A stretch of 64,000 nt of DNA from an uncultured Anaerolineae bacterium (GCA_964353405.1 CAYGWJ010000121.1:2421-66420), one strand, 5' to 3'; shown: positions 32,714 through 52,156, numbered from the stretch's first letter. The notes: a model not told the origin generated them from the letters alone. Translations and numbers: made by a program.

Positions 32714-32718
32714 AGACC

Positions 32719-33795: not shown

Positions 33796-33796
33796 C

Positions 33797-35059
33797 GTGC
33801 AGCACACCATTCCACTCGATCAACTGGGCGCGCAGGGACCGGCGATGGCGCACGCCGTCGAGGCGTGCGTGCATTGCGGCTTTTGCCTGCCCGCCTGCCC
33901 CACGTACAAAATCCTGGGCGAAGAAATGGACTCGCCGCGTGGCCGCATCGTGTTGATCAAGTCGGCGCTCGAAGGTCAACTGAACATCGAGGAAACGGCG
34001 CCGTTCATTGATCACTGCCTGGGCTGCCTGGCTTGCGCGCCGGTCTGCCCTTCGGGCGTGCCGTATGGCGAGCTGGTCATGCCCTTCCGGACGTACGCCG
34101 AAAAGCGCCGCCAGCGCAAGCCGATGGACAAACTCCAGCGGACCCTGGTGAACGAGACGCTACCCTATCCGGGCCGCTTCCGTTTGGCGGCGACGATGGG
34201 CAAACTGGCGCAGCCGTTCAGCGGGCTCCTTCCGCAAGAGTTGCGCGGGATGCTGGCAATGTTGCCCGATCATCTGCCGCCCTCACAACCGCTTCCCAGG
34301 CTTTATCCTGCACAAGGCCAACGCCGCGCGCGCGTCGCTCTATTGGCGGGCTGCGTCCAGCAAGTGTTGGCGCCGGAAATCAACTGGGCTACGCTGCGCG
34401 TGCTGGCCCAGAACGGCGTCGAGGTCGTCATCCCGCCAGGTCAGGGCTGCTGCGGCGCGTTGCCGATGCACCAGGGAGAGCAAGAGCGGGGACGCGGGCT
34501 TGCGCTCAAGAATCTGCGTGTGTTTCCAAAGGATGTGGACGCGGTCGTGACCAATGCAGCCGGCTGCGGATCGGGCATCCAAGAGTACGGGCTGCTCTTC
34601 AAAGGTCATCCCGCGCAGAGTGAGGCCGAAGCGTTCGCCCAGCAAGTCAAGGACGTGAGCGTGTTTCTAGCCGAGTTGGGGCTTGAGGGCCCACCGCCGC
34701 TACGTCAACCGCTCAAGCTGGCTTATCACGATGCCTGTCACCTGTCGAACGCACAGGGCATCACGGAGCCTCCGCGCCGATTGCTCAAGAGTATCCCGAA
34801 CTTGACGCTGCTCGAAGTGCCGGAAGGCGACATGTGCTGCGGGTCGGCTGGCGTCTACAACCTGGAACAGCCCGAGATCGCTAACCAGCTCGGCCAGCGC
34901 AAAGCGGAAAACATTTTGCGAACGGGCGGCGAAGGGGTGGCGGCAGGCAACATTGGCTGCCTGGTCCAAATCCGCACACACCTGCAAAGGCTCAACAAGC
35001 CTCTGCCCGTGTATCATACGGTGCAGGTCCTCGACCTGGCTTATGCACAGGCTGTTTGA
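33797..35059 (+). CDS. glcF: Glycolate oxidase iron-sulfur subunit GlcF
   Basis: GTG at 33797 after a GGAGG Shine-Dalgarno. Two Cys-rich ferredoxin-like motifs ([24 protein letters not shown]) plus two CCG domains. Confidence 0.8.
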
Positions 35060-35101
35060 GCAGAACCGCAGAATTGTGCGGGCGACTAGACACAGTCGCT
35101 C

Positions 35102-35866
35102 CTACTTGAGCTCAAAGCCTTGACTCATTAAAACCGCGTGCAAGAAGGTGCGCGTGGGTTGAGAGACGCGCCGGGCCGAGTGCTCCAGCCAGCCATAGTC
35201 CTCCACCTGCTCCGGCTTGCCCGGCACAGGCGCCTGGCGTCCCTCGTAAATGCCGGTCTCGATCATCGCGCGGTCATAATCCCGCAAGGCCTGGTCTTGA
35301 TCGCGGTTGTACGTTTCCCAATGCAACACCGCCTTGGTCGCCAATCGAGGCCGGAGGCGCGGCGCGGCGGCCGGCCAGCCCACCGTCATGCCGGTGACAG
35401 GCAAGACAAGGTGGGGCAGAGCCAAAAGCTCAATCACCGCTCGCGGGTTGTTGCGGATCGAGCCGATGTAGCAGATGCCCAACCCCAACGATTCGGCCGC
35501 CAGCGCCGCAGTCTGCGACGCGATGGCCGTGTCCACCGTGGCGAGCAGGAAATTCTCTACGTACTCGGCCACCTGCTCGTAGCCACGCAACTGGCAGACG
35601 CGATCCAGCCGATTGAGGTCGGCGCACCAGGCCATAAAGACAGGGGCCTCGGCAATGTGCGATTGGTTGCCGCACAACTCGGCCAGCCGCTTGCGCTTCT
35701 CAGCGTCGGTCACGGCGACGACGCTCATCATCTGCAAATTGGACGAGGTCGAGCTGCGCTGCGCCGCCGCGACAAGGGTCTCGACCATTTCAGCTGGAAC
35801 GGGGTCGGGCTTGTAATGCCGGACAGAGCCGTGACGATGAATCAATGCGATGGTAGATGTGCTCAC
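35102..35866 (-). CDS. NADPH-dependent nitroreductase-family oxidoreductase (NfsA-like)
   Basis: N-terminus HRHGSVRHYKPDPVP, characteristic of the NfsA/FRP family. Confidence 0.75.
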   Translation of the reverse strand: MSTSTIALIHRHGSVRHYKPDPVPAEMVETLVAAAQRSSTSSNLQMMSVVAVTDAEKRKRLAELCGNQSHIAEAPVFMAWCADLNRLDRVCQLRGYEQVAEYVENFLLATVDTAIASQTAALAAESLGLGICYIGSIRNNPRAVIELLALPHLVLPVTGMTVGWPAAAPRLRPRLATKAVLHWETYNRDQDQALRDYDRAMIETGIYEGRQAPVPGKPEQVEDYGWLEHSARRVSQPTRTFLHAVLMSQGFELK

Positions 35867-35993
35867 AGGTTCACTCCGTTATCGTGATGTTGTGCGTATG
35901 AATTATATCACTTGGCAGAAAAGACAATTCTGCGCTAAAATCAAGCTGATTTCAACGCCAACTTCCAGGATATACACCGAGGTCAATCCATCT

Positions 35994-37430
35994 ATGTGGA
36001 GAACGTATTTTACTCCGACTTCCCTAGAGACCGCGCTTCAAATCCTCGCCCAGTACCGCGGGCAGGCCCGCATCATTGCCGGAGGCACGGACCTTCTCAT
36101 TGAACTGGAGCGCAAGGTCAGGACACCGCACGTCCTGATTGACATCACACGCATCCCCGGCCTGGACGAGATCACGTCGAGTGACAGGCAGATCCACCTG
36201 GGCCCCCTTGTCACGCATAACCAGGTGGCCGGCTCGGCGCTATGCGTGGAGCAGGCTTATCCCTTGGCGCGCGCATGCTGGGAGGTCGGCGCACCGCAGA
36301 TTCGCAATCGCGGCACGGTGTCGGGCAACCTCATCACCGCCAGCCCCGCCAACGACACCATCACGCCGCTGTGGGCGCTCGGCGCAAGCGTGACACTGAC
36401 CAGCGTCCGGGGCGAGCGCACGTTGAGCTTTCCCGAGTTCTTTAGAGGCGTGCGCAAGACGGCGATGGAGCCGGACGAAATCCTCACCCGCATTGGTCTG
36501 CCAGCGATGAAGCCGACCGAGCGCGGGACATTCATCAAGCTGGCGCTGCGGCGGGCGCAGGCCATCTCGGTCGTCAACGTCGCCGCTGTGGTCGGCCTCG
36601 CCGATGGGCACGTGACCGAAGCACGCATCACGCTGGGCAGCGTTGCGCCGACGATTGTCCACGCCGTTCACGCGGAAAGCTTCTTGGGAGGCAAGCCGCT
36701 CACCGGTGACATTATTGCGGAAGCGGGCCAGTTGGCCGCGTCAGATTCGCGGCCCATTGACGACATTCGCGGCAGCGCCGATTATCGCCGCGAGATGGTG
36801 CGCGTGATGACGATGCGAGCCTTGACTCAACTGCGCGATGGCACACAGCGCAATGGATACCCGCACCAGCCGGTGATGCTCGCGTCAAATCTCGAACACC
36901 TGCACTGCGCGCAGGCGCAAGTGTCTCGAATCTCAAATAGCATGGGAACATTGATTCACGAGGAAACGGGCCACCAGCCGATCGTGACGACCGTCAACGG
37001 GAAACAGTCTACAGTACGCGGCGCGAACGACAAGACGCTCCTGCGGATGCTGCGCGAAGACATTGGCCTGACGGGGACGAAGGAAGGCTGTGCCGAGGGC
37101 GAGTGCGGCGCGTGCACCGTGTTTCTTGACGGCGTCGCGGTCATGTCGTGCATGGTGGCCGCGCCGCGCGCGCATGGCTCCGAGATTGTCACGGTCGAAG
37201 GGCTGGCGCGCGACGGTCAGCTGCACCCGGTGCAGCAAGCGTTTATCGAAGAAGGCGCGGTACAGTGCGGCTATTGCACGCCAGGCTTTTTGATGGCGGG
37301 CGCCAAGCTGCTGGAAGAAAAGCCTTTACCTTCGCGCTGGGAAATTGAGCATGCCATCACGGGCAACCTGTGCCGCTGCACAGGTTATTACAAGATCATT
37401 CGCGCCATCGAAAAGGCAGCGCAAAAATAG
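35994..37430 (+). CDS. Xanthine-dehydrogenase-family fused FAD-binding (CoxM-like) and [2Fe-2S] (CoxS-like) subunit
   Basis: N-terminal FAD_binding_5 domain (IIAGGTDLLIELERKVRTPHVLIDITRIPGL). C-terminal 2Fe-2S motifs GCAEGECGACTV and QCGYCTPGF...NLCRCTGY. Confidence 0.8.
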   Translation: MWRTYFTPTSLETALQILAQYRGQARIIAGGTDLLIELERKVRTPHVLIDITRIPGLDEITSSDRQIHLGPLVTHNQVAGSALCVEQAYPLARACWEVGAPQIRNRGTVSGNLITASPANDTITPLWALGASVTLTSVRGERTLSFPEFFRGVRKTAMEPDEILTRIGLPAMKPTERGTFIKLALRRAQAISVVNVAAVVGLADGHVTEARITLGSVAPTIVHAVHAESFLGGKPLTGDIIAEAGQLAASDSRPIDDIRGSADYRREMVRVMTMRALTQLRDGTQRNGYPHQPVMLASNLEHLHCAQAQVSRISNSMGTLIHEETGHQPIVTTVNGKQSTVRGANDKTLLRMLREDIGLTGTKEGCAEGECGACTVFLDGVAVMSCMVAAPRAHGSEIVTVEGLARDGQLHPVQQAFIEEGAVQCGYCTPGFLMAGAKLLEEKPLPSRWEIEHAITGNLCRCTGYYKIIRAIEKAAQK

Positions 37431-37488
37431 ACACTTGCGCCTGCGCGCAGTGCAGGTGACGGGCTGCGAGTTGAACAAGGAGAATAGC

Positions 37489-37812
37489 ATGGGTTTCAGA
37501 ATCGAGTCCGGCCGACAACGCCACAACAAGAACGCGTCGCAAAAGGCCAGCGGCATCGGCATGATCCTGATCTTTATCGTGCTGGGTGTTTCGGTCGCAC
37601 TGGGCTGGTGGATTCCATTGAACTATGACGTGCGCGGCTATTTGCCCTTCACCGCTGCCTGGAGTACCCTCGCCATCCAGCTCGTCACGGGCGTGGTGGC
37701 ATTCATTCTTCTGCAGTTCATGATCGTGCTGATTCAGGGGATTCTGTTTCCCCCTCAGCCTGAAGATCAATACAACCAAGACGGCTTGTACATCGGGAAG
37801 AGAGAAAAATGA
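37489..37812 (+). CDS. Small two-TM membrane protein between the molybdoenzyme subunits
   Basis: AAGGAG Shine-Dalgarno before the ATG at 37489. Two hydrophobic helices. The stop overlaps the next gene's start (ATGA). Confidence 0.45.
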
Positions 37813-40004
37813 TGACAAACCTGGTAGGCCAATCCCTCACCCGTGTTGACGCCGTAGGCAAAGTCACAGGCGCAACACTCTACCCCGGCGACCTGACGAT
37901 GCCGGGGATGCTTCACATGAAGGTGCTCTTTGCGCGTCGGCCGCATGCTCGCATCAAGCGGCTGGACGTATCGAAGGCCGAGGCCGCGCCGGGCGTGGTG
38001 GCAGTGTTCACCGCCAAGGATGTGCCGGTCAACGAGTTTGGGCTGATCATGTTCGACGCGCCTGTGCTTGCTATGGACACCGTGCGCTGGATCGGCGAAA
38101 AGGTGGCGCTCGTCGTGGCGGAAACTGAAAAGCAGGCCGCTCGCGCGCTCGACCTGATCGAGGTCGAGTACGAGGATTTGCCGGCCGTGACCGATCCCCG
38201 CGAGGCAATGCAGCCAGGCGTACCGCAGCTTCACCCTGAACCAGCGAATAACGTCCTGGTGCATTACCGCATCCGTCAGGGTGATGTGGAGGCTGCCTTT
38301 CAGCATGCCGATGTGATCGTGGAGGGCACGTATCACACACCCTTCCAGGAACACGCCTTCCTACAGCCCGAAGCAGGACTGGCCTACATGGATGAAGAGG
38401 GCCGCGTCACGGTGCAGGTCGCCGGTCAATGGACACACGAAGACCAGGAGCAGATCGCGCACGCGCTCCAGCTCCCGCACGACCAGGTGCGTGTGATCTA
38501 TCCCGCCATCGGCGGCGCATTCGGCGGACGCGAGGATATGACTGTGCAGATCATCCTGGCGCTAGCCGCGTGGCGGCTTGCGCAGCGTGGCGTGAAGCGA
38601 CCGGTCAAGATTGTGTGGAGCCGCGAAGAGTCCATGCTCGGCCATCACAAACGCCACCCGATGTTCTTCAGGACCCGCTGGGGCGCAACGAAAGAAGGCA
38701 AGCTCGTCGCCGCCGAGGTCGAGGCCATCAGCGACGCGGGCGCCTATGCGTATACCAGCACCAAGGTGCTGGGCAACACCACGCTCATGTGCACTGGCGC
38801 GTATGAAATCCCCAACGTCAAGGTGGACACGTACGCGGTTTACACGAACAATATTCCCACCGGGGCATTCCGAGGCTTTGGCGGGCCGCAGGGTCTGTTT
38901 GCCGCCGAAATGCAGATGAACAAGCTGGCAGAAAAGCTGGGGATGGACCCGGTCGAGCTGCGAACAAAGAACCTCGTGCACGAAGGCTCGCTTCTGTCTG
39001 TCGGCACGCCTCTTCCGCGCGGCGTCTCGATGCCGCAAGTGGCCGAAAAGGCCGCGCTGGCGGGCGGCTGGAAGCTCAAAGACGCCAAGTGGCAGCGGCC
39101 ACACGCCCCGTCTTGTATATCAAAGAACAAGCGCTACGGCACCGGCTACGCCTGCGGATTCAAGAACGTAGGCTTTTCCTTTGGCGCGCCGGAGCAATGC
39201 ACAGCCAGGATTGAGCTGCGCGGCACGACTGAAATTGACGAGGCGATTGTGTATCACTCGGGCGCGGACTGCGGCCAAGGCGCGCATACCGTTTTTGCGC
39301 AGATGGCCGCCGAGGCGCTCGAATTGCCCATCGAAAAGATCAGGCTCGTCGTTTCCGACACAGCCTACACAGCCAACTCGGGCAGCGCTTCAGCCAGCCG
39401 CATGACGTTCATGGCGGGCAACTCGATCCTGGGCGCGGTGGAGCTGGCGCTCAAGAAATGGCGGGGCGAAGAACGCCCGGCGATTGGCGTTTACCAATAT
39501 CGCCCGCCCAAGACCACGCCCTATGACCCCGAGACCGGCAAAAGCGAGCCGAACTTTGCCTATGGCTATGTGGCGCAAGTGGCCGAGGTGGAGGTGGACA
39601 TCGAGACGGGTCACGTGCGGCTGCTACGCGTGTGGTGCGCCGACGACGTGGGCACGGCCGTCAATCCACAGTTGGTTCAAGGACAAATCGAAGGCGCAGT
39701 CGTGCAGGCGCAGGGCTATGCCATCCTGGAGAATTTTGTCGTCGGCAAAGACGGCCAGGTGCAAACGCCTCACCTGAGCACCTACCTTATCCCGACCGTG
39801 CTCGACGTGCCGCAAGAGGTGCATTCGCTCATCCTGGAATATCCCGACCCCATCGGCCCGTTCGGCGCGCGTGGCATGGGCGAGATGCCCTTCCTGCCCA
39901 TGGCGCCGGCGATCACGGCTGCCGTCCACGATGCGATCGGCGTGTGGTTCGACGATTTTCCGCTCACGCCGGATCGAGTGCTAAAAGCGCTAAGAGGAGA
40001 ATAA
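37809..40004 (+). CDS. Xanthine-dehydrogenase/aldehyde-oxidoreductase-family molybdopterin-binding large subunit
   Basis: 731 aa with Ald_Xan_dh_C/C2 family signatures ([26 protein letters not shown]). Confidence 0.85.
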
Positions 40005-40007
40005 CCG

Positions 40008-40751
40008 ATGAGCATTCCTGATCTTCCTACCGTTCCAGAAGTGAGCGGACAATCGCGCAGCGGGATCAAGTATCATATCCTGGGCACCGTCCAGCAGACG
40101 CTGGCGGTCGAGTTGCAGCCGGGGCAGGTCATCTATTCCGATACGGGCGCCATGTCGTGGATGACGGCTGCGGTGACGATGAACACCAAATCCGGCGGCG
40201 GGTTGGGCGGCATGCTCAAGCGCGCAGTTTCCGGCGCGACGGCCTTCATCATTGATTTCGAGGCCGCCGGACAGCCCGGACAGGTGGCGTTTACCACCGA
40301 CTTTCCGGGCAAAATCCTGGCGATTGAACTGGACGCGGGGCAGACGGTCATCATGCACAAGCACGCCTTCCTGTGCGCGGAAAAGACCGTTGCGCTGGAC
40401 GTGTTCTTTACACGCAAACTGGGCGCAGGGTTGTTTGGCGGCGAGGGTTTTGTCCTGCAAAAGCTGACCGGGCCGGGCCTGACATTTGCCGAATTGGACG
40501 GCGATGCCGTCGAATATCGGTTGCAGCCCAATCAGGTGATGCGCGTTGAGCCGGGGCACGTGGCGATGTTTGAAAGCAGCGTGGCTTTTGACATCGAGAT
40601 GATCAAAGGCATGGCGAACATTTTGCTGGGGGGCGAGGGGTTGTTCCTCGCCACACTCAAAGGGCCGGGGCGTATCTGGCTGCACTCGATGACCGAGAGC
40701 AAGATGGCACAGCGGCTGATCCAGTACATGCCGGCCAAGTCGAGCGGATAA
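40008..40751 (+). CDS. AIM24/TIGR00266 (DUF124) family protein
   Basis: Gly-rich beta-repeat sequence (GEGFVLQKLTGPG...GEGLFLATLKGPG) typical of AIM24. Confidence 0.65.
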   Translation: MSIPDLPTVPEVSGQSRSGIKYHILGTVQQTLAVELQPGQVIYSDTGAMSWMTAAVTMNTKSGGGLGGMLKRAVSGATAFIIDFEAAGQPGQVAFTTDFPGKILAIELDAGQTVIMHKHAFLCAEKTVALDVFFTRKLGAGLFGGEGFVLQKLTGPGLTFAELDGDAVEYRLQPNQVMRVEPGHVAMFESSVAFDIEMIKGMANILLGGEGLFLATLKGPGRIWLHSMTESKMAQRLIQYMPAKSSG

Positions 40752-40753
40752 AC

Positions 40754-41494
40754 TTGAACGAGTCCCCCGCCTGGTCACGCGGCTCACTGTGGGCAACTGC
40801 ATCGCTGATACTCTTGATTCCGTTGATGTGGTCCTCGCCTTCTCTGGCTCAAACTGCACTGCCGGCAACGCGGGCCGAGGCCAATCCCAAGTTTCTCACT
40901 CTGCCATTCAACGACCCCAGTGTGCGTATCTCGCAGGGCTGGATCTGCCATTGGGGCGCGGGCGAATGCGCCGAGCTATACGGGTCATTGATTCATGGCG
41001 GGATTGACTATGTGAAAAGAACCTGGCCGGGTGATAGCTTTGAGGTGGTGGCCGCCGCAGACGGCCATGCTTACTATCGTCCCAACCATTCCATTCTGGG
41101 CAACACTGTCATCATCGAGCATCAAGTGAACGGCAGAGCTTTGTACACGCTCTATGGTCACTTGCAAAGCAGCGACCTTCCACCCGAACCAGCCTGGACC
41201 CATGTGCAACGCGGTCAAAAGATCGGCATGGCGGGAGATAGCGGCTCGGCGATGGGACGGGGCATCCACTTGCACTTTGCGTTGTGCGTGGGCGATTGGC
41301 GCACCAAGTGCAAAGCGCCCTACCCGGATTGGACAGTAGACCCTTATGATGTTTATAGCACCTGGGGAGGCTATCCACCTGATGGGGCATTAGGCGTCAA
41401 TCACTTTTTCACAACAGATCCGCCTCAGATCCCCTTTTCCCGAGCCATACATACGCGGCAGAGCAATTTATCTCTCGGTTTGGCGATGGACTAG
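40754..41494 (+). CDS. Secreted M23-family metallopeptidase
   Basis: Signal peptide. The HxxxD motif is represented by the His in LIHGGIDY. GMAGDSGSAMGRGIHLHF carries the M23 HxH motif. Confidence 0.7.
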   Translation: MNESPAWSRGSLWATASLILLIPLMWSSPSLAQTALPATRAEANPKFLTLPFNDPSVRISQGWICHWGAGECAELYGSLIHGGIDYVKRTWPGDSFEVVAAADGHAYYRPNHSILGNTVIIEHQVNGRALYTLYGHLQSSDLPPEPAWTHVQRGQKIGMAGDSGSAMGRGIHLHFALCVGDWRTKCKAPYPDWTVDPYDVYSTWGGYPPDGALGVNHFFTTDPPQIPFSRAIHTRQSNLSLGLAMD

Positions 41495-41545
41495 AGAGAA
41501 ACATCGGGCCTCACTCCGATAAGGAGCACCGTAGCAAACCGCCAC

Positions 41546-41929
41546 TCAGCGCAGCGCGCCGTGTTCCTTCGCCAACCGAGCAAAATCATTCTGCGATCCG
41601 GCATCCGGCAGTACAGACTGGGCATTGATCAACTCTTGCCCGGTCGCCTTGAGCGCCATCAGCGCAAAACCTGTCAGCACTTCGGCAGCCTTAAAGTTAC
41701 AGTGACCGTAGCGCAAGATGGGAATACCGCTGTATCGCACAGCCGAGCCGGTGCCCCAAACCTTCATGCGGTAAAGCGTCTCGTGCCAGTAGGGCACAAC
41801 AGGATCACCCGTCGTGTGGAGGGTGACCAGCGGTGAGGTGAGCCGCCCGGTGGTCTGATAGTGCAGCGTGATCTCGTTCAGCGCGCCCTGATCGGCCTGG
41901 AAGTGCGCCACCTTAATGAGATATTCCAC
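41546..41929 (-). CDS. Truncated alpha/beta-hydrolase-fold protein, C-terminal part only (possible gene remnant)
   Basis: Contains the Asp and His regions of the triad (LHTTGDPVVPYW, RYGHCNFK) but has no nucleophile-elbow domain. A paralogous remnant lies at 45282-45443. Confidence 0.4.
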   Translation of the reverse strand: MEYLIKVAHFQADQGALNEITLHYQTTGRLTSPLVTLHTTGDPVVPYWHETLYRMKVWGTGSAVRYSGIPILRYGHCNFKAAEVLTGFALMALKATGQELINAQSVLPDAGSQNDFARLAKEHGALR

Positions 41930-42048
41930 CTCGATGATACTACCACTGTCAAATCACCAGCAGGCCAGTGACAAGGTTTCGGCGCTCTATCGGCGAACGC
42001 GAGTGACGAACCCGCCGCGGGCACCGGAATCGGAACGCGACCCGTGTG

Positions 42049-44961
42049 TCACGGTTCCTGGCGCAACACCATGGGCAGATAGACTTTCAGAGGCGAGACG
42101 GCCACTGGAGCCATCTGCACGTCCGAGTAGCCGCAGCCATCGGTCACCGCCAGCCGCACGGTGAACACTCCCTCGCGAGTGTAGACGTGCGATGCGTTGA
42201 CGGTGAACGCGTGGGCCGTCCCGTCTCCCCAATCCCAATCGTGGCTCAGCGGCGAGCCGTTAGTAGAACTGGTGCTGGTGAACCACACCGTGCGGCCAGT
42301 AGTGGGCGCGCTCGGCCCATAGTCGAAGGCGGCGTTGAACGTGGGCGATAGCACAGTCAAGGTCATGGGCGCACCGACCGAGTTCCGCACGCCCTGGTCG
42401 TTCCGGCGCACGCCATAATCTTGGTTGACGACGTTTGTCCCCGCCGCGCAGGTGAGCGTGCCGTAGAACCAGCCGGAAGTAGTGCCGCCGTTCGGTGCGA
42501 CCGTCCACAAGGGCCACGAGACGATGCCGTTGTTGAACGCACCGTTCCCGCCGCCGTAACTCAGACCGGACGGGAGTGTGTCCGTGACGTAGACGCCGCT
42601 GCCTTCCTCGTTGCCTGCGTTCGTCACCGTCACCGTATAGGTGACGACGGTTCCCGCCGCGCGGTTGCCCGCAACCACCTTGCCAATCTGGAAGATGGAT
42701 GTGGGAACCATGACGGTATAGGTGAAGATGTTGTTGTTATAGAACGGCTCCCTATCGCTGATCGGATTGTCACTGGCAATCCTGACCGTGTTGGTGAACA
42801 GGTCGCCGCGCTTGGCCGTGTCAGTCACGCGAACGGTGACCACGTAATCATTCCAGTCGCCGCTCCCCATCTGCCCATAGTTCCAGGCCAATGTCCTGCC
42901 GTTGTTATAGTTGGGAGTGCGCGGGCACAAATACGTCCCGCTGCCGCACTGGTACAATGTCGAAGTGATAAACTCTAGCCCGACAGGCAACACATCGGTG
43001 ATCCAGACATGGCCCATCGTGGACCAGGCGTCGCTGTCGCGGAAATACAACGTGTAGGTGATCAGTTGTCCCGGCTTGGGCGTCCCGCCAATCAAGTATT
43101 TTTGGATGTTCAGATCCGGCCCGGCGCCGTGGAGATACACCTGGCGATTGTCGTCCGGGTACACGTCGCCAAGCGGCGTTGTGATCTCGACGGTGTTGGT
43201 CAGCATGGCGCCATTGGGCAGGGAGGGCACGCTCAGATCCATGGTCAGGTCGTAAGGTTCGCCTATGTCCAGCCTTCCAAGGGTCACGACAAGTTGGTTA
43301 CCCGACACGTTGCCCGACACGTCGCCCAAGTCTCCACCATAAGAGTCAATCCACCAATCATTCAACGTCATCGAGAGCGGAAAAGTGTCGGTGATCACCA
43401 CGTTGTACTCGGTTGTCGTGCCGATGTTCTGGAAGTGTATATAGTAATGGATACGATCCGGTCCGCCCCACCACTCGTGAGACTTGGTCACGCGCAGGTT
43501 GGGGCCGGCCGGGCGAACTAGGTCGGTCACGCACATGTCGTTATTGTGTGGGTTGGCGTCAAACTCGCGAATAGCGCCTGTAGCGCAGTTGGTGAGGACA
43601 GTGCCAGGCGGTGTGTCGTCATTGATCCGCAGGTAAAGCCTGATGTGGGGTGCGGAGTTAACCCGATCCACATCACCCAGGTCCCATGCCAGTTGATTCC
43701 CGACGGTGCGGCTCGGCGGAAAAGAGGGAATCCGACCACGCGGATATAGGCTCCCCTCGGCCCGGACAAAAGTGACCCCGGCGGGCAGGGTATCGGTGAA
43801 CACCGTGTCGTGCATGAGCGAGTTGCCAGCGTTTCCAATTTGTATCTCATACTCGATCTCGCTGCCTGGCGTCGAGACCACCCGGTTGCCCCACCAGCCC
43901 ACTTCGACATCATAGCGTGGCGGGCTAGCCGAGTTCCAACTTGTCGAGATGTTATTGGTCGTGTTGGTGTCGCCGGTTGTCGTGATTTCAACCGTGTTGC
44001 TAAGCTGGGTGCCATAGGTGACCACATCGCTCAGGCGCAGGTCCAGGTAAATGCGATCATCATAGCGGCCTGGCAGCGCCGGAGCATACAGCACGAATTT
44101 GCCGCCTGTGGTGATAACCGCCGTCCACAGGCTGTAGCCGCTCGACCCCACCTGCCAAGTGACAAAAGTGGTGGAGAGGGGCAATGTATCCGTCAGCCAG
44201 ACGGGGCCGCTGGCAACCTGGCCGCTGTTGCCATAGCTTATGATGTAGCGCAAGAGCTGACCGGGAGAGGGGTCGTAGGGTCGGGTATAAAGGTTAACCA
44301 CGTATGGGTCGGGCGACTGGCCTGCGACGACCGAGACGCTGGCTTCGGCGTGGTTGTCGCCCCAGTTGGTCTCTTGCGATGTGCCAATGTCAACAGCATT
44401 GAGTAGTGTATCGCTGACATTCGCAGTATTGGTCAGCACCAAACGGAACTGATAGTCTGGCGAGTTTGCTCCCAGAGTGCCCAGGTTCCAGGTGATGGTG
44501 CGTCCGCTGACAAAGGCTGGAAAGCCGCTGCTATCGGCGATGTAGGTGGTGCTGAGTGGCAGTGTATCGGTGAGCATGGCCGGGGCTGCATCGTCGCCAT
44601 TGTTGCGGTAGCGGATGCCGAACACGACTGACCCGCCCGGCGCGACCTGACCTTTGCCCTCGCGCCACTTTTCGACATACAGGTTGGGCGCGGCGGTTTT
44701 GAAGGTGTACTGTGTGCTATGGTTGTGGTATTGCTGCGCATACACATTGTCGGCCTGGGTTGAGCCGTAGGTCGTCCCGCGTGCCACGGTCACGGTCGCG
44801 CCGGGCGACACCTGGCCCCAGAGGGCATCGTAGGCTAGGTCCACCACGAACTGACCTATGCTGCTTTGTGCTTGAGCCGGAGCGCGGGCCAGCACAAGTG
44901 TCAGCGCTGCGGCGAGTCCCAGTCCAAGGAACAGGGTGAAGAGAACCTTGAGTGATCTCAT
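42049..44961 (-). CDS. Large secreted DUF11-repeat surface protein with a C-terminal PKD domain
   Basis: Probable start MRSLKVLFTLFLGLGLAAALTLVLA at 44961, after a GGAGGA Shine-Dalgarno. Repeated DUF11-type blocks (LTNTVEITT, LTDTLPLSTT, VTDTLPSGL). PKD signature WDWGDGTAHAF...VYTREGVFTVRLAVTD. Confidence 0.8.
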   Translation of the reverse strand: MRSLKVLFTLFLGLGLAAALTLVLARAPAQAQSSIGQFVVDLAYDALWGQVSPGATVTVARGTTYGSTQADNVYAQQYHNHSTQYTFKTAAPNLYVEKWREGKGQVAPGGSVVFGIRYRNNGDDAAPAMLTDTLPLSTTYIADSSGFPAFVSGRTITWNLGTLGANSPDYQFRLVLTNTANVSDTLLNAVDIGTSQETNWGDNHAEASVSVVAGQSPDPYVVNLYTRPYDPSPGQLLRYIISYGNSGQVASGPVWLTDTLPLSTTFVTWQVGSSGYSLWTAVITTGGKFVLYAPALPGRYDDRIYLDLRLSDVVTYGTQLSNTVEITTTGDTNTTNNISTSWNSASPPRYDVEVGWWGNRVVSTPGSEIEYEIQIGNAGNSLMHDTVFTDTLPAGVTFVRAEGSLYPRGRIPSFPPSRTVGNQLAWDLGDVDRVNSAPHIRLYLRINDDTPPGTVLTNCATGAIREFDANPHNNDMCVTDLVRPAGPNLRVTKSHEWWGGPDRIHYYIHFQNIGTTTEYNVVITDTFPLSMTLNDWWIDSYGGDLGDVSGNVSGNQLVVTLGRLDIGEPYDLTMDLSVPSLPNGAMLTNTVEITTPLGDVYPDDNRQVYLHGAGPDLNIQKYLIGGTPKPGQLITYTLYFRDSDAWSTMGHVWITDVLPVGLEFITSTLYQCGSGTYLCPRTPNYNNGRTLAWNYGQMGSGDWNDYVVTVRVTDTAKRGDLFTNTVRIASDNPISDREPFYNNNIFTYTVMVPTSIFQIGKVVAGNRAAGTVVTYTVTVTNAGNEEGSGVYVTDTLPSGLSYGGGNGAFNNGIVSWPLWTVAPNGGTTSGWFYGTLTCAAGTNVVNQDYGVRRNDQGVRNSVGAPMTLTVLSPTFNAAFDYGPSAPTTGRTVWFTSTSSTNGSPLSHDWDWGDGTAHAFTVNASHVYTREGVFTVRLAVTDGCGYSDVQMAPVAVSPLKVYLPMVLRQEP

Positions 44962-45281
44962 AGCACTCCTCCTAATGTCTGACACTCGAGAGGCAAATGA
45001 GAAGACGCTGCGGCGAGCTGATTCAGGCCAACAAAGTGAGACTGAAAGGGAAGTGGAAGAAAGACAAGATAAACCTGGGGAAAGTGCATGGCCTGCCACA
45101 CCGGGCGCACAGCAACGCGTGTGACCCAACTCGCAAAATTAGAGAATGGGTTTCCTGGTCACCAATCCTTCTAGAAGGATGCGCCTCTCTACTCTCATTA
45201 TATACCCGATGTCAAGTGTCTTTTTGGCCACTTTGACGGCTTGCAACCGGCTTACAGGGCTTTTTTCCTAACGCAATTCTA

Positions 45282-45443
45282 ACCATGAACAGGGAACAGA
45301 AGTGAACCGTACAATAGTACAAAACCTGTCAATACTTCGCTGGCCTTAAAGCTACAGTGGCCTTGGCTCGAGATCGGAAGACGACCGCCGGAATGGAGGT
45401 GCCAGCGGGCCAAGTCAGTTGATGTTTCCACTTTTCCGGTGTA
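45282..45443 (-). pseudogene. Decayed paralogous remnant of the alpha/beta-hydrolase C-terminal fragment
   Basis: Minus-strand translation ...ARWHLHSGGRLPISSQGHCSFKASEVLTGF aligns to ...AVRYSGIPILRYGHCNFKAAEVLTGF of 41546..41929. About 75% nucleotide identity over ~100 bp, with in-frame stops on both sides. Confidence 0.45.
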
Positions 45444-45578
45444 TCATTTCGCTCGTCGTACACTCTGTTGGTCCGCACATGACCGCGAGCACGTCTTGAG
45501 GGCACACTGCTCTCAGTTTTGACTTACACAACGGCGCGAGTGCCCATAGGCCGTTTAATCAGATGACAATGGAGGTAA

Positions 45579-46310
45579 TTGATGGCAACGACGAATGACC
45601 GCGATACCAACCACAGCCGAAAGATCGTGGTGCAAGAGAACGGCCCCTACGTGGTTCACGGTGGGATCCCTTTGGTGCGCAAGACCCAGGTCGTCTCTGA
45701 ACATGGCGAGCCACTGACGTGGAAAAGAGAAGAGACGCTTGAAACGGGGGAAGCCTACGACCTCTGTCGTTGCGGGCAGTCCAGCGAAAAACCATTCTGC
45801 GATATGACGCATTTAGACGTTGACTTTGACGGGACGGAAACGGCCGATACCCGTGTGACGGCAGAACGCCAGGTGACCTATGCGGGCGGCGCCAAGATCG
45901 TCGTCAAGCGCGATCATTCCCTCTGCACAGAATCGGGTTTTTGCGCGAATCGGATCACCAACATCGAAAAGATGGTTTCCGAGACCGGGGACACCCAAGT
46001 GCGGGCACAGGTCATGGCGATGATCGAACGCTGCCCGTCTGGCTCCTATGTATATGCCCTCGAAGAAAGCGGGCCGGACATTGAGCCTAACCTGCCTCAG
46101 CAGATTGCGGTGACAACCGAGATCACATCAGATGGCCCCATCGCCGGCCCGCTGTGGGTGACTGGGAATATCCCGATCGAGAGGGCCGATGGGCAGCCTT
46201 TTGAGACGCGCAATCGGGTTACGTTGTGCTGTTGCGGGCGCTCAAAAATCAAACCCCTATGCGATGGCGCACATCGGGCCATGGGCACCACCAAGACGGG
46301 CAGCCGGTAG
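45579..46310 (+). CDS. Two-domain CDGSH iron-sulfur protein
   Basis: CRCGQSSEKPFCDMTH is a CDGSH variant, and CCCGRSKIKPLCDGAH is canonical. Confidence 0.75.
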   Translation: MMATTNDRDTNHSRKIVVQENGPYVVHGGIPLVRKTQVVSEHGEPLTWKREETLETGEAYDLCRCGQSSEKPFCDMTHLDVDFDGTETADTRVTAERQVTYAGGAKIVVKRDHSLCTESGFCANRITNIEKMVSETGDTQVRAQVMAMIERCPSGSYVYALEESGPDIEPNLPQQIAVTTEITSDGPIAGPLWVTGNIPIERADGQPFETRNRVTLCCCGRSKIKPLCDGAHRAMGTTKTGSR

Positions 46311-46326
46311 GCCCGGTGCTGTCTAC

Positions 46327-49059
46327 TCACCCAGTTGTCTTTTTGCGTCTGGCGAGCCAGAGAGCAAGAGCGCACCCTGTCAACGTCACCACGCTGATCC
46401 CCAAGCCGACCCAGGGTGATGCTGGCGCAAACTCGAACTCGACTCGATGTCGCCCGGCCGGGACCGGCACGGCGCGAAAAAGAATGTCCGCCCGCGCAAT
46501 TTCGACCGGCTGGCCGTCCACCGTCGCGCGCCAGCCTGGATACCAGGCGTCCGTCAACACCAGCCAGCCCGCGCCTGCTCCATTCGTTTCGACTACGACA
46601 CGCTCGGGCTCATAGGTGACAATTCTAGTCTCGTAGGGCACGCTCCGCGTGGCAGCTTGCCCTACATTCGACTGCGAACCCTTCAACACCGCCGTCTGCG
46701 CAAGATCGAAGGACGTGGCACGCATCGCCGCGAGTGCCGTCGCATCATCCGGAGCGCTCACCGTTTGCGCCACCATAAAGGCGCGCGGCAGTGCGTCCAG
46801 GTTCTCGTAGATTTTGACATCGCCAGAGTGAACAAGCCGGAAACGCCCGCGCCCGGAGATGACGAGCGATTGAAAGCCGCCCGTCCGCTCGTCAATCAGC
46901 GAAGCGCCGCGCATGACGATTTGGCCGCTTGTCATCAGCGGCCTCACAGTGACGGACGTGACCACGCGCGGTTCGCCGAACTGCAGGCGCGTCACATAAT
47001 CATTGAATTCGGGATGGTCACGCACGAAATGCCCCCCTACCCGCGCAGCCTTGTGCTGCACTGCGTTCGTATAAACTCCCTCGGCGGTGTCAACGCCCGC
47101 GCGCAGGGTGAATGTCTGCGTGAGGCCATCCGCAAAACCGACCGCCACCTCGGCCGCCGGCGTGCCATCCGGCAGACTGCCTCCCCCCTGCAAGTAGGAC
47201 ACCACGCCCAGCGCCGTCGCTTCAAAGCGCGGGACGAACACGACACTCGCTTCGCCTAGAGGCGTGGTGAATTGCAAATCATAAAACACATCGTCAAGCC
47301 ATGCGTCGAGCGTCTTGTCGGTGATGACGTAGCGAACGTTCATCAATGACAGCCACCGGGCATCCGGCACATCGCGCAGATTCTCGCGCAAGCGTCCATC
47401 GGGCGAAACCTTGTCTGACGGAACAAACAACGCTTCGAGTGTCACGTAATTTCGCAGCGGCAGCACGCCGCCATCGTAACCGTCGGCGGCAGACAAGCGA
47501 TAATAGAGCGAGAGGTTCGGCCCGATGATTTCCTTTTGCTTGGTCGCAACCAACAGATCGTAAAACGCATCCTTCGGAAGTTGATCGGCAAAGATGCTCC
47601 CGAGCTCGGCCTTGTCGCCCGGGTCAAATTCGATGGGTGAAATCGAAAGAAAGCGCGAGGGCGGCTGATCGGCGCTGGCAGCCAGGAGATGCGCCACGGA
47701 AGGCCGCAGGCTCGTCAAGGCGTCCGGCGCGGTGGGATGGTTGTACCCCAGTGGGCGGCTGGCAAGGAACAATTCGGCAACGAGCAGGAAAAACATCAAA
47801 GACCCAATCTCAAACCCCCTAAAGAGGGAGATTCTCGAATGACAGCGCAACCAATTCGAGATTTGATCCACGCCGATGCCGGCCAGCATCGCCGCGCCAA
47901 AGGCATACAGGACCAGCCAGCGAGCCGGAACGCGAAAGAGATTGAACCCCGGCGCGAGCTTGATGAGCAATGAATACAGTGGGTTGTACCCGCCGAGCGC
48001 GAGCACCAGTCCAAGCAATGCCAGAATGCTCATCGCTCGACAAAAGACAAGGGACGACGGACTGACATGGGGCGTTTGTCCCCCAAAGCGATCCTGCGTT
48101 ACTCTCCAGGAGACCCATATTCCAACCGAGCTAAACGCGAGCCCGGTCACGCCAATGTATGCTACGTATTCGCTCAAGATCGTTTGGCGAAAGTTGGGTA
48201 ACAATGCCGGAAGGAGCAGCGCCGGACTGAGCGAAAACGATACCGCCTCGCGCCAGGTGAGGCCGCCCGCTCGCATGGACTGGCGAGCCAGCTCCAGCGT
48301 CGGCACAAGCTGCGCTGCCGCCAGCAAAGCGCCTAGCATCACCGCGCCGAGCCACACACCCAGCCGTTGCGCAAGGTGGCGTGCATTCCCTCGCCGAGCC
48401 GCTGCATTTTCAATGGCAGGCCACAACGCATAGACGCCCAACCCCACGAGCGAGATGAACACCGATTGCGAATGGCCGGCGAGCAACTGAATCGTCACGA
48501 CGGCTGCCAACGCAAATGCCCATTGCCAGCGTCCGAGCGCCAGATCGAAAAACGTGAACAGAAACGGCAGCCACGACAGCGCCTGGAACTGGTTCACGTG
48601 CTCGACCTGTGCGCTCAGGTAGCCTCCCAATGCAAACGTCACCGCGCCCAGCCATGCCGCCCAGCGGCCAAGCCCCAGGCTGCGCCGCGCAAAAATGTAT
48701 GCCCCGGCCCCGGCCAGCCACACGTGCAAAATGATCGTGAGGTTAATCGCGCGCGTTGTGGACAGCCACGCCAGCGCTAGGTTGAGCGGATACAAGACAC
48801 CGGTCTGGCTGTTGGCAAAGAACGGCACGCCCATGAACAGGTAAGGGTTCCACAGCGGGAGACGACCCTGGCGAATAGCAGCGGCGGCATAATTCCAGTT
48901 GGGGTAGAAATACAGGAACACGTCGCCGCGCGCGAGGATGAGATTGGTAAAGGTTAGCTTCCAGTAGAATACAAAACAAACAGTCAGCAACCCAAGATAG
49001 GGCACAACGCTGACCGACAGGGGAGCAAGCCTCTGAACTGCGCGAGATAGCTTTGCCAA
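46327..49059 (-). CDS. YfhO-family polytopic membrane glycosyltransferase-like protein
   Basis: 910 aa, more than 12 TM helices, with a large C-terminal extracytoplasmic domain. The N-terminal region resembles YfhO (PF09586). Confidence 0.7.
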   Translation of the reverse strand: MAKLSRAVQRLAPLSVSVVPYLGLLTVCFVFYWKLTFTNLILARGDVFLYFYPNWNYAAAAIRQGRLPLWNPYLFMGVPFFANSQTGVLYPLNLALAWLSTTRAINLTIILHVWLAGAGAYIFARRSLGLGRWAAWLGAVTFALGGYLSAQVEHVNQFQALSWLPFLFTFFDLALGRWQWAFALAAVVTIQLLAGHSQSVFISLVGLGVYALWPAIENAAARRGNARHLAQRLGVWLGAVMLGALLAAAQLVPTLELARQSMRAGGLTWREAVSFSLSPALLLPALLPNFRQTILSEYVAYIGVTGLAFSSVGIWVSWRVTQDRFGGQTPHVSPSSLVFCRAMSILALLGLVLALGGYNPLYSLLIKLAPGFNLFRVPARWLVLYAFGAAMLAGIGVDQISNWLRCHSRISLFRGFEIGSLMFFLLVAELFLASRPLGYNHPTAPDALTSLRPSVAHLLAASADQPPSRFLSISPIEFDPGDKAELGSIFADQLPKDAFYDLLVATKQKEIIGPNLSLYYRLSAADGYDGGVLPLRNYVTLEALFVPSDKVSPDGRLRENLRDVPDARWLSLMNVRYVITDKTLDAWLDDVFYDLQFTTPLGEASVVFVPRFEATALGVVSYLQGGGSLPDGTPAAEVAVGFADGLTQTFTLRAGVDTAEGVYTNAVQHKAARVGGHFVRDHPEFNDYVTRLQFGEPRVVTSVTVRPLMTSGQIVMRGASLIDERTGGFQSLVISGRGRFRLVHSGDVKIYENLDALPRAFMVAQTVSAPDDATALAAMRATSFDLAQTAVLKGSQSNVGQAATRSVPYETRIVTYEPERVVVETNGAGAGWLVLTDAWYPGWRATVDGQPVEIARADILFRAVPVPAGRHRVEFEFAPASPWVGLGISVVTLTGCALALWLARRKKTTG

Positions 49060-51364: not shown

Positions 51365-52156
51365 ATGGAACTTGGCGAAGCACTGGGCATCCAACCGGGC
51401 GATATGGCCGCGTTCGTCGGCGCGGGTGGCAAGACCACGTCCATCTGGCGCATTCAAGGCGAGCTCGCCACACAAGGCTTGCGCTCTATCCTGACGACGA
51501 CGACCAAGATCATGGAGCCGGTCATGCCACCTGACGGCGCGTTGATGCTAACAGCCCGGCCCGACGCCGGCCGCGTAGGCGCTCTACTTGACCGCGCGCC
51601 GCGCCTGGCATTGGCCTCGCGCCGGTTGGACGAGCCGTATCCTTGCCACGCCGACCACCCCGTTCCATCGCGTCCGTACAAAGTGGATGGCCTGCCAACC
51701 GAGACGCTGAACGAGCTTGTCAGGCAATGGCCGGGCGTTACCTGGCTGGTCGAAGCCGATGGCGCCAAGGGCTGCGGCCTCAAGCTGCCCGCCGCTCACG
51801 AGCCTGTCATTCCAGGTTGCGCGACCATCGTCGTGGTCATGGCGCACCTCGATGTGCTAGGCTGTCCTCTCGATGAGACGACCGTGCATCGAGTGACTGA
51901 TGCAACGCGTGCACTGGGCGTGCCCGTCGGAACGCCGCTCGCGCCTGCGATGTTTGCCCGCGTGCTGACGGATGATACGCTGGGATTCAAGGGCATTCCC
52001 CACCGAGCGCGCGCCGTCGCATTGCTCACACAGCGAGGCCCAACACTACATGCGGATGCCCTCGCGCTGGCCGAGGCGCTTGGCGCGCGCTACAGTCGTG
52101 TCGTCATCGCCGCGTTGCGCGCGGACAAGCCAGTCTTGCAGGTCAGGATACAATGA
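51365..52156 (+). CDS. yqeC: Putative selenium-dependent molybdenum hydroxylase accessory protein YqeC
   Basis: N-terminus AFVGAGGKTTSIWRI plus the WLVEADGAKG pattern of the YqeC (TIGR03172) family. Confidence 0.65.
   Translation: MELGEALGIQPGDMAAFVGAGGKTTSIWRIQGELATQGLRSILTTTTKIMEPVMPPDGALMLTARPDAGRVGALLDRAPRLALASRRLDEPYPCHADHPVPSRPYKVDGLPTETLNELVRQWPGVTWLVEADGAKGCGLKLPAAHEPVIPGCATIVVVMAHLDVLGCPLDETTVHRVTDATRALGVPVGTPLAPAMFARVLTDDTLGFKGIPHRARAVALLTQRGPTLHADALALAEALGARYSRVVIAALRADKPVLQVRIQ

Follow-up and report, generated by a model that had tools for sequence, protein, structure and literature searches.

Flexible islets are hypervariable segments between core genes, the content of which is turned over by illegitimate recombination and by homologous recombination in the flanking regions, and they often carry genes for cell-surface proteins. 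The locus described here belongs to the genome of an uncultured Chloroflexota bacterium (Anaerolineales-like) and contains an islet of 5.6 kb that is absent in a close relative. The whole stretch of DNA that was analysed, 64,000 nucleotides in length, is called the window. Like the known islets, the islet of the window has conserved syntenic borders, a content that varies from relative to relative and a surface gene aboard. Unlike them, it shows neither a compositional anomaly nor a tRNA or an integrase, and much of its content is decaying rather than fresh. Its history was deduced from short metagenome contigs.

Bacterial pseudogenes reportedly decay through a deletional bias, as Mira, Ochman and Moran are said to have described in 2001, and the deletions involved are mediated by microhomology. 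Small collinear gene pieces, a loss of 182 nt between 5-nt repeats, deletions specific to single relatives and one case of total loss fit this type of decay. The usual course differs in one respect from the situation in the window, where an intact gene is bracketed by two copies of one gene that have decayed to very unequal extents. Due to this bracketing the locus looked like a cassette. A further process to compare is the single-crossover (Campbell-type) integration used in gene-disruption mutagenesis, which leaves, on either side of the inserted DNA, an upstream copy without its 3' end and a downstream copy without its 5' end, both pointing in the same direction. The truncation geometry of the copies around the DUF11 gene of the islet matches this pattern, but the duplicated parts are 79% alike and unequally decayed, and nothing points to a vector-like or circular donor.

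CLIPPER domains (DUF11, PF01345) form the stalks of fibrillar adhesins (PMC12617251). The surface protein of the islet resembles these adhesins in six tandem CLIPPER/DUF11 stretches with matches of the DUF7619/CLIPPER_2 type and in an additional Ig-like PKD domain; a putative signal peptide and a putative C-terminal sorting motif would be further points of resemblance. It differs from them in having no recognisable adhesive tip domain, and its anchoring signal would be a YLP box of the Chloroflexota type instead of the LPXTG or OmpA anchors.

Results

The variable islet and its composition

The islet extends from 40005 to about 45520, as defined by blastn against the relative L168; the right edge, at about 45520-45544, was set by eye on alignment A5. 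Both flanking genes are conserved. On one side lies an XDH-like gene (stop at 40004) for a molybdopterin subunit of the xanthine dehydrogenase family and on the other side a CDGSH gene (ATG at 45582) for an iron-sulfur protein. The genes of the islet according to Pfam are AIM24, M23 peptidase and DUF11 only. The AIM24-family gene (40008..40751, plus strand; Pfam AIM24, E 6.5e-65) starts 3 nt past the XDH stop, and its homologues in 80 other genomes had no neighbours in common with it. The gene of a secreted M23 peptidase (40754..41494, plus strand; Pfam Peptidase_M23, E 6.4e-13) is convergent with a hydrolase gene fragment on the minus strand (41546..41929), here called fragment A. A terminator-like hairpin just past the stop of fragment A (41502..41521, minus strand) is the one site of this type that follows the DUF11 gene on the minus strand; it was detected with a consensus scan, the terminator-like sites of the region were not above shuffled sequences, and its support is weak.

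The spacer that separates the DUF11 stop from the beginning of the hydrolase homology (41930..42048, minus strand; about 120-134 nt) matched neither the hydrolase profile nor any fetched locus except 99%-identical contigs with the same arrangement, and it marks a rearrangement junction. Assemblies made independently from further samples (L003, L004, L085 and L167) show this arrangement as well, which is thus not an assembly artefact.

A search of the region for a transposase, an integrase, TIR or an Rfam element gave no result, and neither a tRNA in the 64-kb window nor a target duplication or terminal repeats at the islet ends were found. The GC3 values of the DUF11 gene (0.75), the AIM24 gene (0.77) and fragment A (0.72) lie in the range of most window genes (about 0.70-0.80). 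With a codon distance of 0.085 the DUF11 gene is typical of the window, and no compositional anomaly that would indicate a foreign origin was detected for the gene or the islet in GC3 and codon usage.

The DUF11/PKD surface-protein gene

The sequence-only reading had placed a secreted DUF11/PKD protein of 970 amino acids at 42049..44961 (minus strand), and Pfam and NCBIfam searches agree with this description. The reading frame is intact. DUF11/CLIPPER (PF01345) matches six stretches (E 1.7e-51), TIGR01451 likewise six (8e-43), and a PKD domain is found with Pfam (E 4.8e-13); an isopeptide-forming fimbrial domain was matched weakly in NCBIfam (2.9e-10). By eye, the N-terminal sequence MRSLKVLFTLFLGLGLAAALTLVLARAPAQA is hydrophobic and signal-like. 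The C-terminal YLP box scored 14.0 with NF053834 (cutoff 10) and 14.8 with NF050076 (cutoff 15), and the motif recurs in the majority of the 120 homologues listed, a strict pattern finding 70 and inspection by eye still more. A GGAGGAG sequence is located 5 nt ahead of the ATG, and the gene differs from its counterpart in L003 by 11 synonymous and 7 non-synonymous exchanges. The predicted product is a secreted, adhesin-type surface protein with six CLIPPER/DUF11 stretches, a PKD domain and a YLP-box tail.

The hydrolase family and fragment A

For the analysis of the flanking fragments we used a profile of 411 positions derived from 57 full-length relatives. The length of the family proteins is about 410-470 amino acids, and these relatives have 366-464 amino acids, a signal peptide and the motifs HGY, GxSEGG, HTTGDP and RYGHCNF. 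GxSEGG is invariant in alignment A3 and is carried by all 57 full-length members, a set that was chosen for having a GxSxG motif; HTTGDP (Asp) and RYGHCNF (His) are also invariant, and the order is Ser, Asp, His. Pfam Hydrolase_4 and Peptidase_S9 matched all 25 full-length members tested, and the first member was above both gathering scores (31.9 versus 27 and 29.1 versus 22.6, respectively). In the PDB, the top matches were alpha/beta hydrolases, with alignments over the nucleophile elbow and over the Asp strand, which falls on the region of the catalytic-Asp strand of 7wwh. The family is described here as predicted secreted proteins of the alpha/beta hydrolase fold. As in Hydrolase_4 and Peptidase_S9 enzymes, the full-length relatives contain the GxSxG elbow, the HTTGDP Asp after a beta-strand and the GHC His loop in canonical order. 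In contrast to these enzymes they carry an insertion of about 150 amino acids between nucleophile and Asp as well as conserved Cys residues, and the copies in the window are non-catalytic remnants. Few members of the family are truncated (about 4 of 82 loci), and none of the 80 metagenome loci and the protein-derived loci L001 and L002 contains two hydrolase copies.

Fragment A (E 6e-54 with the profile) is the 3' third of such a gene. It encodes 127 amino acids in an intact open frame with a GTG start and corresponds to profile positions 280-409, the final 130 of the 411 positions. The homology starts at about 41916, and the DNA profile aligns 41916-41550 with model nt 866-1232. HTTGDP and RYGHCNF are present, whereas GxSEGG is missing; in the family the GxSxG motif is located about 150 amino acids upstream of the point where fragment A begins. 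This bears out the earlier statement that the nucleophile domain is lacking. Fragment A alone had no Pfam or NCBIfam match, and protein and DNA profiles revealed no N-terminal relic of its copy in the whole window. Having lost the first 280 or so codons and the catalytic serine, it cannot, as judged from its sequence, act as a hydrolase.

Fragment A is seemingly orthologous to the XDH-adjacent fragments in L001 (GCA_040960625.1; 69% amino acid and 75% nucleotide identity) and L090, in both of which the hydrolase 3' end is convergent with XDH. It appears to be the resident copy, which is found beside XDH in more distant relatives too. Away from the junction 1 of 25 highly conserved columns is altered, an invariant Arg is exchanged for His, and no excess of lineage-specific changes was detected in the fragment. 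Since the sequence is otherwise pristine, the truncation would be fairly recent. The truncation points differ between the lineages, with profile position 280 in fragment A and 201 in the 209-aa fragment of L001.

The second relic on the CDGSH side

The second relic, remnant B, consists of two pieces on the minus strand and comprises a recognisable remainder of about 113 bases. The C-domain piece (45313..45379) contains the His motif, LPISSQGHCSFKASEVLTGFVLL, and corresponds to about profile positions 352-376 (model nt 1058-1124), so that the Asp motif is not covered. It was detected with the DNA profile (E 1.6e-7), the protein profile (E 3.8e-6) and tblastn (E 9e-7 within the window). The N-domain piece (45380..45425) reads QLTWPAGTSIPAVV compared with DQLxLPDGTSIP in the family; it corresponds to positions 75-90 (model nt 225-270) and is the third best match in the window (DNA profile, E 0.009). 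The E values of the DNA profile were computed over the whole window. Both pieces are collinear and in different reading frames, and their direct abutment indicates an internal loss of about 787 nt.

The alignment of remnant B with fragment A is limited to a single block of 63 nt (41665-41727 versus 45320-45382) with 79% identity, which is well above chance; the sequence-only reading had suggested a decayed paralog with about 75% nucleotide identity, a value close to ours. These values and the significant profile matches identify remnant B as a genuine leftover of the hydrolase family of fragment A. With 51 of 67 nt in each case, it is equally close to fragment A and to another member of the family, L086. 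Both relics share the strand of the DUF11 gene. The proposal that both flanks encode the Asp/His end is correct for fragment A; in remnant B we found the His motif and, in addition, a piece of the N-terminal domain. This composite of N- and C-pieces suggests that a second hydrolase copy once reached from the N-terminal domain at least to the His motif.

The site in related genomes

A relative with an empty site was identified (L168/L169), the flanks of which are 85-94% identical on both sides. Using blastn, window positions 32093-39980 correspond to L168 1-7904 (90-94%) and 45620-49058 to L168 8039-11484 (87%). In L168, XDH and CDGSH are separated by 63 nt only. The intact hydrolase that had been expected at a site without the DUF11 gene is not there; the interval contains neither a hydrolase nor DUF11. 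The XDH proteins of the window and L168 are 93.8% identical, L001 shows 85.5-85.6% and is the outgroup, and an altered XDH C-terminus occurs in L168 alone. The sister relation of window and L168 and this altered C-terminus suggest a secondary loss in L168, and we infer that the islet is ancestral.

Strain-specific deletions were found on the CDGSH side. A segment of 182 nt (45231..45412; pairwise alignment A4), which holds most of remnant B, is present in the window and in L167, where the spacing between DUF11 and CDGSH is 620 nt as in the window, and is missing in the 99%-identical L003. It is bounded by the 5-nt direct repeat TGGCC. In L171 (about 90% nucleotide identity in the flank) the hydrolase relic retains amino acids 75-92 and 181-191 and is fused to DUF11 at about codon 195; the N-piece QLTLPDGTFIP (E 7e-7) is followed by a VFDYFSPG piece (model nt 542-572, E 0.004). 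L003 and L171 are each represented by a single short metagenome contig. At this site L001 harbours a hydrolase relic together with an M28 peptidase, an amidohydrolase and further content, compared with AIM24, M23, relic, DUF11 and second relic in the window. The content differs in L001, L003, L168 and L171, in line with the repeated rearrangement proposed earlier for this site, and the site is a hypervariable islet holding pseudogene relics.

Discussion

We consider it probable, with considerable reservation, that the DUF11 gene of this hypervariable islet lies between relics of two hydrolase copies which arose by deletion-biased decay and not by transposition. A resident hydrolase beside the XDH-like gene would have lost its first 280 or so codons and become fragment A. 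A second copy, reaching from the N-terminal domain at least to the His motif, would have been located between the CDGSH and DUF11 genes, where successive deletions may have shrunk it to remnant B, different relatives losing different parts. The process would combine deletion-biased decay with illegitimate recombination at an unstable site. It is ordinary gene decay at an unstable spot and involves no new mobile element.

That two once-complete hydrolase copies flanked the DUF11 gene is something we infer, as no relative with both copies intact occurs among the loci examined, and this counts against decay from two copies. The CDGSH-side pieces, which are short and singly borderline (E 0.009 in the window and 0.004 for the second piece of L171), count against it as well.

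The upstream end at position 376 or so and the downstream start at position 280 also fit a single insertion-duplication. According to this alternative, which we regard as unlikely although it deserves consideration, one hydrolase gene spanned the gap between CDGSH and XDH, and a block carrying DUF11 was inserted near codon 280. The N-piece and fragment A would then have belonged to a single gene, as its two halves, and the His-motif piece alone would be extra. Either a Campbell-type or homology-facilitated integration duplicated codons of about 280-376, or the block carried with it, from a donor site, the 3' end of a hydrolase paralogue. The geometry on one strand, with amino acids 75 to about 376, leader, DUF11, spacer and amino acids 280-409, would fit one event, and the N-piece lies about 95 nt from the CDGSH edge of the islet with fragment A on the XDH side, as expected for a gene spanning the gap. 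In L090 the hydrolase 3' end is convergent with XDH at a distance of about 840 nt, and tandem hydrolase pairs were not seen elsewhere among the loci examined. The nearest DUF11 homologue (87% nucleotide identity) lies in another context, within a tandem DUF11 array in L165, which indicates that such genes relocate. However, if the duplicated segments were identical at the start, their divergence of 21% would mean long neutral evolution, with the single altered column of 25 in fragment A set against it; a rough binomial estimate by hand gave P of about 0.02 for equal neutral decay. The His piece is, moreover, no nearer to fragment A than to L086. A donor locus with a hydrolase followed by DUF11 was not found; L165 and L166 are without hydrolase, and L095 has only a weak DUF11-like match 3.4 kb away. 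Homologous integration at about 80% identity would also be inefficient.

The resident copies of the window and L001 are both 5'-truncated yet pristine, which counts against decay from two copies and requires either that truncation happened twice, recently and independently, or that the fragment is under selection. Selection would mean that fragment A and the 209-aa fragment of L001 are stand-alone proteins or a co-transcribed 3' element of a DUF11 operon, which we think improbable. Both lineages have an open frame and a start codon despite the differing truncation points, the conserved residues are intact, and dN/dS of fragment A against L001 is 0.18 at a dS of 1.37; no terminator-like site lies between the DUF11 stop and fragment A, and one follows directly past it. 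However, nucleophile, oxyanion and core strands are all gone, and the C-terminal third of an alpha/beta fold would probably not fold by itself. The change of the invariant Arg in the window and an E83K exchange, seen in three further contigs of this species at a site that 90% or more of the relatives conserve, also speak against selection, as does the rarity of truncated copies in the family, and a low dN/dS would be expected anyway if both truncations are recent. The wider version, in which nucleophile-less fragments were kept after independent 5' truncations as small proteins or as a co-opted 3' untranslated/terminator module for DUF11, with the upstream relic acting likewise in the DUF11 promoter or leader, is equally doubtful.

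The proposal that the DUF11 gene is the cargo of a mobile element or cassette with hydrolase-derived direct repeats as its ends could draw on the similar same-orientation sequences on either side and on the presence/absence polymorphism, but it is largely refuted and very improbable, since the repeats are 63 nt long at 79% identity, the polymorphic 5.6-kb block includes the AIM24 and M23 genes and reaches from the XDH stop to the region upstream of CDGSH instead of ending at the repeats, recombinase, TIR, tRNA and target duplication were not found, the base composition is native, and no DUF11 block with these ends occurs elsewhere among the loci searched.

Taking decay of two copies as the preferred reading, the locus is a worked example of how a large gene with look-alike gene fragments on both sides can pass for a direct-repeat cassette although the fragments are pseudogene relics, here decayed to different degrees within an unstable intergenic islet. 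In an annotation, the 127-aa reading frame should be marked as a fragment of a hydrolase pseudogene, and 42049-44961 as an intact CLIPPER/PKD surface-protein gene with a YLP-box tail. If selection had after all preserved the fragments, or if they had been exapted as regulatory DNA, they would represent a modest case of relic co-option. The analysis also delineates an uncharacterised family of secreted alpha/beta hydrolases, which is frequent in environmental metagenomes of the Chloroflexota type (at least 487 loci) and for which Pfam and NCBIfam hold no dedicated model.

Arrangement of the locus and the DUF11 protein

All parts of the finding are located on the minus strand. Read 5' to 3' on this strand, remnant B (about 45425-45313) is followed by a 350-nt leader, the 970-aa open reading frame of the DUF11 gene (44961-42049) with the sequence GGAGGAG upstream of it, a spacer of about 120-134 nt and fragment A (41929-41546), an open reading frame of 127 aa with a terminator-like hairpin directly after it. 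Pfam revealed six DUF11/CLIPPER stretches (E 1.7e-51) and additionally a PKD domain in the 970-aa protein, and NCBIfam matched TIGR01451 repeats. DUF11 was recently renamed CLIPPER and shown to be a stalk domain with isopeptide bonds in fibrillar adhesins (PMC12617251). The tail of the protein, encoded at 42049-42090, is KVYLPMVLRQEP and matches the YLP-box putative sorting motif of NCBIfam; the score exceeds the cutoff of model NF053834 and falls just short of that of NF050076. Most of the 120 listed DUF11 homologues (P0015-P0134) show the same ending, 70 by a strict pattern and more by eye, with the consensus (I/V)(Y/F)LP(L/I/V/M)(V/I)x(R/K). One full-length hydrolase of the family described below, in locus L002 (8630-8672), likewise ends with EKIYIPVITVP.

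Comparison of the DUF11 gene with L003, a 99% identical contig of the same arrangement, showed 11 synonymous and 7 non-synonymous differences, a ratio compatible with a functioning gene. Matches to promoter and terminator consensus sequences in the region were not more frequent than in shuffled sequences, and therefore we make no claim on expression. Exact copies of TTGACA and TATAAT, only 7 nt apart (45197-45215, minus strand), lie about 235 nt before the DUF11 start and, on this strand, just downstream of a 182-nt indel; a canonical sigma-70 promoter would have a different spacing.

Fragment A and its hydrolase family

Fragment A alone matched no Pfam or NCBIfam model. A word-indexed protein search with it yielded only 14 relatives, and a degenerate-pattern scan of metagenomes detected at least 487 loci of the family, where the matching frame usually spans 405-490 aa. 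The hallmarks are a signal peptide, HGY, an invariant GxSEGG, HTTGDP and RYGHCNF. All 25 full-length members tested matched Hydrolase_4 and Peptidase_S9 of Pfam, the first member above both gathering scores, and the top solved-structure matches are alpha/beta hydrolases aligned at the nucleophile elbow and the Asp strand. The family is uncharacterised and neither Pfam nor NCBIfam has a model dedicated to it, yet it is an ordinary family of the alpha/beta hydrolase fold. The members at loci L086-L164 (for example L086 96-1346 and L088 684-2075) are secreted proteins of about 410-470 aa with further common features: CGPxGDF, an insertion of about 150 aa, HTTGDPxVPYWH and several invariant Cys. 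Other metagenome members also seem to be truncated, to have a broken frame or to carry fused unrelated sequence: in P0008 a hydrophobic N-terminus is joined at about profile aa 305, in P0013 the C-terminus of a short-chain dehydrogenase follows RYG, and L149 (95-478) and L139 (7434-8912) also belong to this group. These structures may be real rearrangements or chimeric assemblies.

In a profile of 411 positions built from 57 full-length members, fragment A corresponds to positions 280-409 (E 6e-54), and GxSEGG lies about 150 residues upstream of the point where it starts. The sequence-only reading had described the fragment as lacking the nucleophile domain, and this holds. Fragment A cannot be a hydrolase because the serine, the oxyanion region and most core strands are missing. 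Profile searches revealed no N-terminal relic of its copy anywhere in the window.

Against the hydrolase fragment of L001 (GCA_040960625.1), fragment A has a dN/dS of 0.18 at a dS of 1.37, compared with 0.08 at a dS of 1.05 for the xanthine-dehydrogenase-like (XDH-like) gene. Away from the junction, only one of 25 highly conserved columns is changed (an invariant Arg to His), an excess of lineage-specific changes in the fragment was not found, and GC3 is still 0.72. Either the truncation may be recent or the fragment may be under some constraint. The exchange E83K, at a 90%-conserved position, was found in three other contigs of the same species; it is the single strain-level difference in the fragment, which is too few substitutions for measuring selection, and gives a slight hint of relaxed constraint.

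Remnant B contains two pieces of a probable second copy

Remnant B matched positions 352-376 of the hydrolase profile (E 3.8e-6). At the DNA level, A and B share a single 63-nt block with 79% identity (tblastn E 9e-7 within the window). Since both pieces match the profile as well as each other, the initial observation that the DUF11 gene is flanked by hydrolase remnants is confirmed.

A codon-level DNA profile of the family was additionally run against the whole window. The His-motif piece (45379-45313) corresponds to model nt 1058-1124 (E 1.6e-7). Directly abutting it and collinear with it is an N-domain piece (45425-45380; model nt 225-270), with an E of 0.009 the third best match in 128 kb, which translates to QLTWPAGTSIPAVV (family: DQLxLPDGTSIP). 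The placement of this piece by MAFFT --addfragments was unreliable and the DNA profile alignment was used in its place. The two pieces are in different frames, as would be expected if about 787 nt, a length not divisible by three, had been lost between them. Thus the description of remnant B as C-terminal applies to the His-motif piece, but an N-domain piece is present as well.

Related sequences extend this picture. L171 is about 90% identical to the window across 45380-46819, and its version of the N-domain piece, with an E of 7e-7, has the sequence QLTLPDGTFIP. Next comes a piece with VFDYFSPG (E 0.004; model nt 542-572), and this is followed by DUF11-type sequence equivalent to about codon 195 of the DUF11 gene in the window. 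L003 is devoid of 182 nt (45231-45412, between two TGGCC pentamers), a loss that takes out most of remnant B; the segment is kept in L167, another contig with this arrangement. Taken together, the N-domain and His pieces, the pieces in L171 and the loss in L003 indicate that remnant B is the residue of a hydrolase copy which began in the N-terminal domain and extended at least as far as the His motif, and which is being whittled away differently lineage by lineage.

The variable unit is a 5.6-kb islet

The proposed comparison with relatives lacking the DUF11 gene, where an intact hydrolase was anticipated, was possible with L168 and L169, which were reached via the neighboring CDGSH gene. Such relatives exist, but there is no hydrolase at their empty site. 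Both flanks in the window, 32093-39980 and the sequence from 45620 on, are shared with them at 85-94% identity; between these flanks, in both relatives, the stop codon of the XDH-family gene is followed by 63 nt and the CDGSH start. The whole block from 40005 to about 45520 is absent, comprising AIM24, the M23 peptidase, fragment A, the DUF11 gene and remnant B. The unit of variation is therefore a 5.6-kb islet and not the DUF11 gene between the relics. A genome scan anchored on AIM24 gave 80 loci, none sharing another neighbor and hence none informative on synteny, and the CDGSH relatives L170 and L173-L177 showed other contexts or were on contigs too short for judging.

A second block absent from L168 (54578-57622) carries genes for a HicB-like antitoxin (55111-55977) and a TPR protein (55929-57512). 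With a GC3 of 0.53-0.55 versus about 0.75 elsewhere it looks compositionally foreign, unlike the DUF11 islet. In the open reading frame 52153-53553 a MobA-like NTP-transferase domain is fused to a HAD hydrolase; in L168 only the HAD protein (274 aa) is encoded downstream of YqeC, and the MobA part of about 490 nt (52164-52654) is thus an indel between close relatives.

Ancestry of the site

The XDH-like proteins of the window and L168 are 93.8% identical and each is about 85.5% identical to that of L001, the outgroup. The hydrolase fragment of L001 (profile 201-409) is also truncated at the 5' end, has 69% aa identity to fragment A and is convergent with the XDH gene; the other genes there differ. 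The same convergence is present in L090. The XDH proteins end with LKALRGE in the window, LKALKSK in L001, LKAIK in L090 and LKELQKAKVE in L168. The 3' ends of the genes differ accordingly (39981-40004 versus L168 7905-7937), L001 and L090 resembling the window. The pattern suggests that the site in L168 was emptied by a deletion with one end in the last codons, at the 3' end of XDH. Judged from four lineages, the simplest reading would be that the common ancestor had a hydrolase beside XDH, that fragment A descends from it and that L168 lost the islet by this deletion.

Two histories could have led to the present arrangement. Probably, in this form or a closely related one, the DUF11 gene was flanked by two hydrolase copies, and the upstream copy was lost before truncation of the downstream copy; this fits because fragment A is much better preserved. 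The alternative is a single hydrolase filling the gap between XDH and CDGSH, which was split when a DUF11 block was inserted near codon 280, either with duplication of codons ~280-376 or together with the 3' end of a paralogue. It would explain the geometry in one step and agrees with the position of the N-domain piece near the CDGSH edge, but the unequal preservation speaks for two flanking copies, and we consider a split hydrolase rather unlikely. The 67-nt His piece does not decide between them because it is equally similar to fragment A and to L086 (51/67 each; a test of shared synonymous states was a tie). Both histories are rearrangements at an unstable site and neither is a mobile cassette. 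The suggestion of repeated rearrangement is borne out by the lineage-specific losses in L003 and L171 and by the empty site of L168.

The DUF11 gene had also been proposed to be cargo between direct repeats, which is not supported as stated, given its native composition, the lack of element hallmarks and the islet-wide variation. The GC3 (0.75) and codon usage of the gene, examined for signs of foreign origin, match those usual in the window. Transposase, integrase, tRNA, inverted or long direct repeats, tandem repeats and Rfam elements were not detected in the islet; the repeat, tandem-repeat and tRNA scans yielded nothing structural and the Rfam scan of the region only sub-threshold noise. 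The closest homologue, in L165 (87% nt identity, dS about 0.45, omega about 0.3-0.4), is part of a tandem array of DUF11 paralogues in an unrelated context, and therefore genes of this family change location between related genomes. A donor locus was not traced: no hydrolase relic is present in the contexts of the nearest homologues L165 and L166, and in a tblastx comparison of L165 with the window all matches beyond the DUF11 gene were noise. The array (L165 8600-21900) contains at least three or four DUF11/CLIPPER paralogues with a similar N-terminal segment and interspersed Macro-domain genes. Many apparent frameshifts on this contig, such as split MoeA genes, suggest an error-prone long-read assembly.

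In summary, the observation made from the sequence was accurate. The locus is a flexible islet with pseudogene relics in deletional decay around a gene for a CLIPPER-type surface protein, and islet, relics, deletional decay and CLIPPER-type gene are all known kinds of thing.
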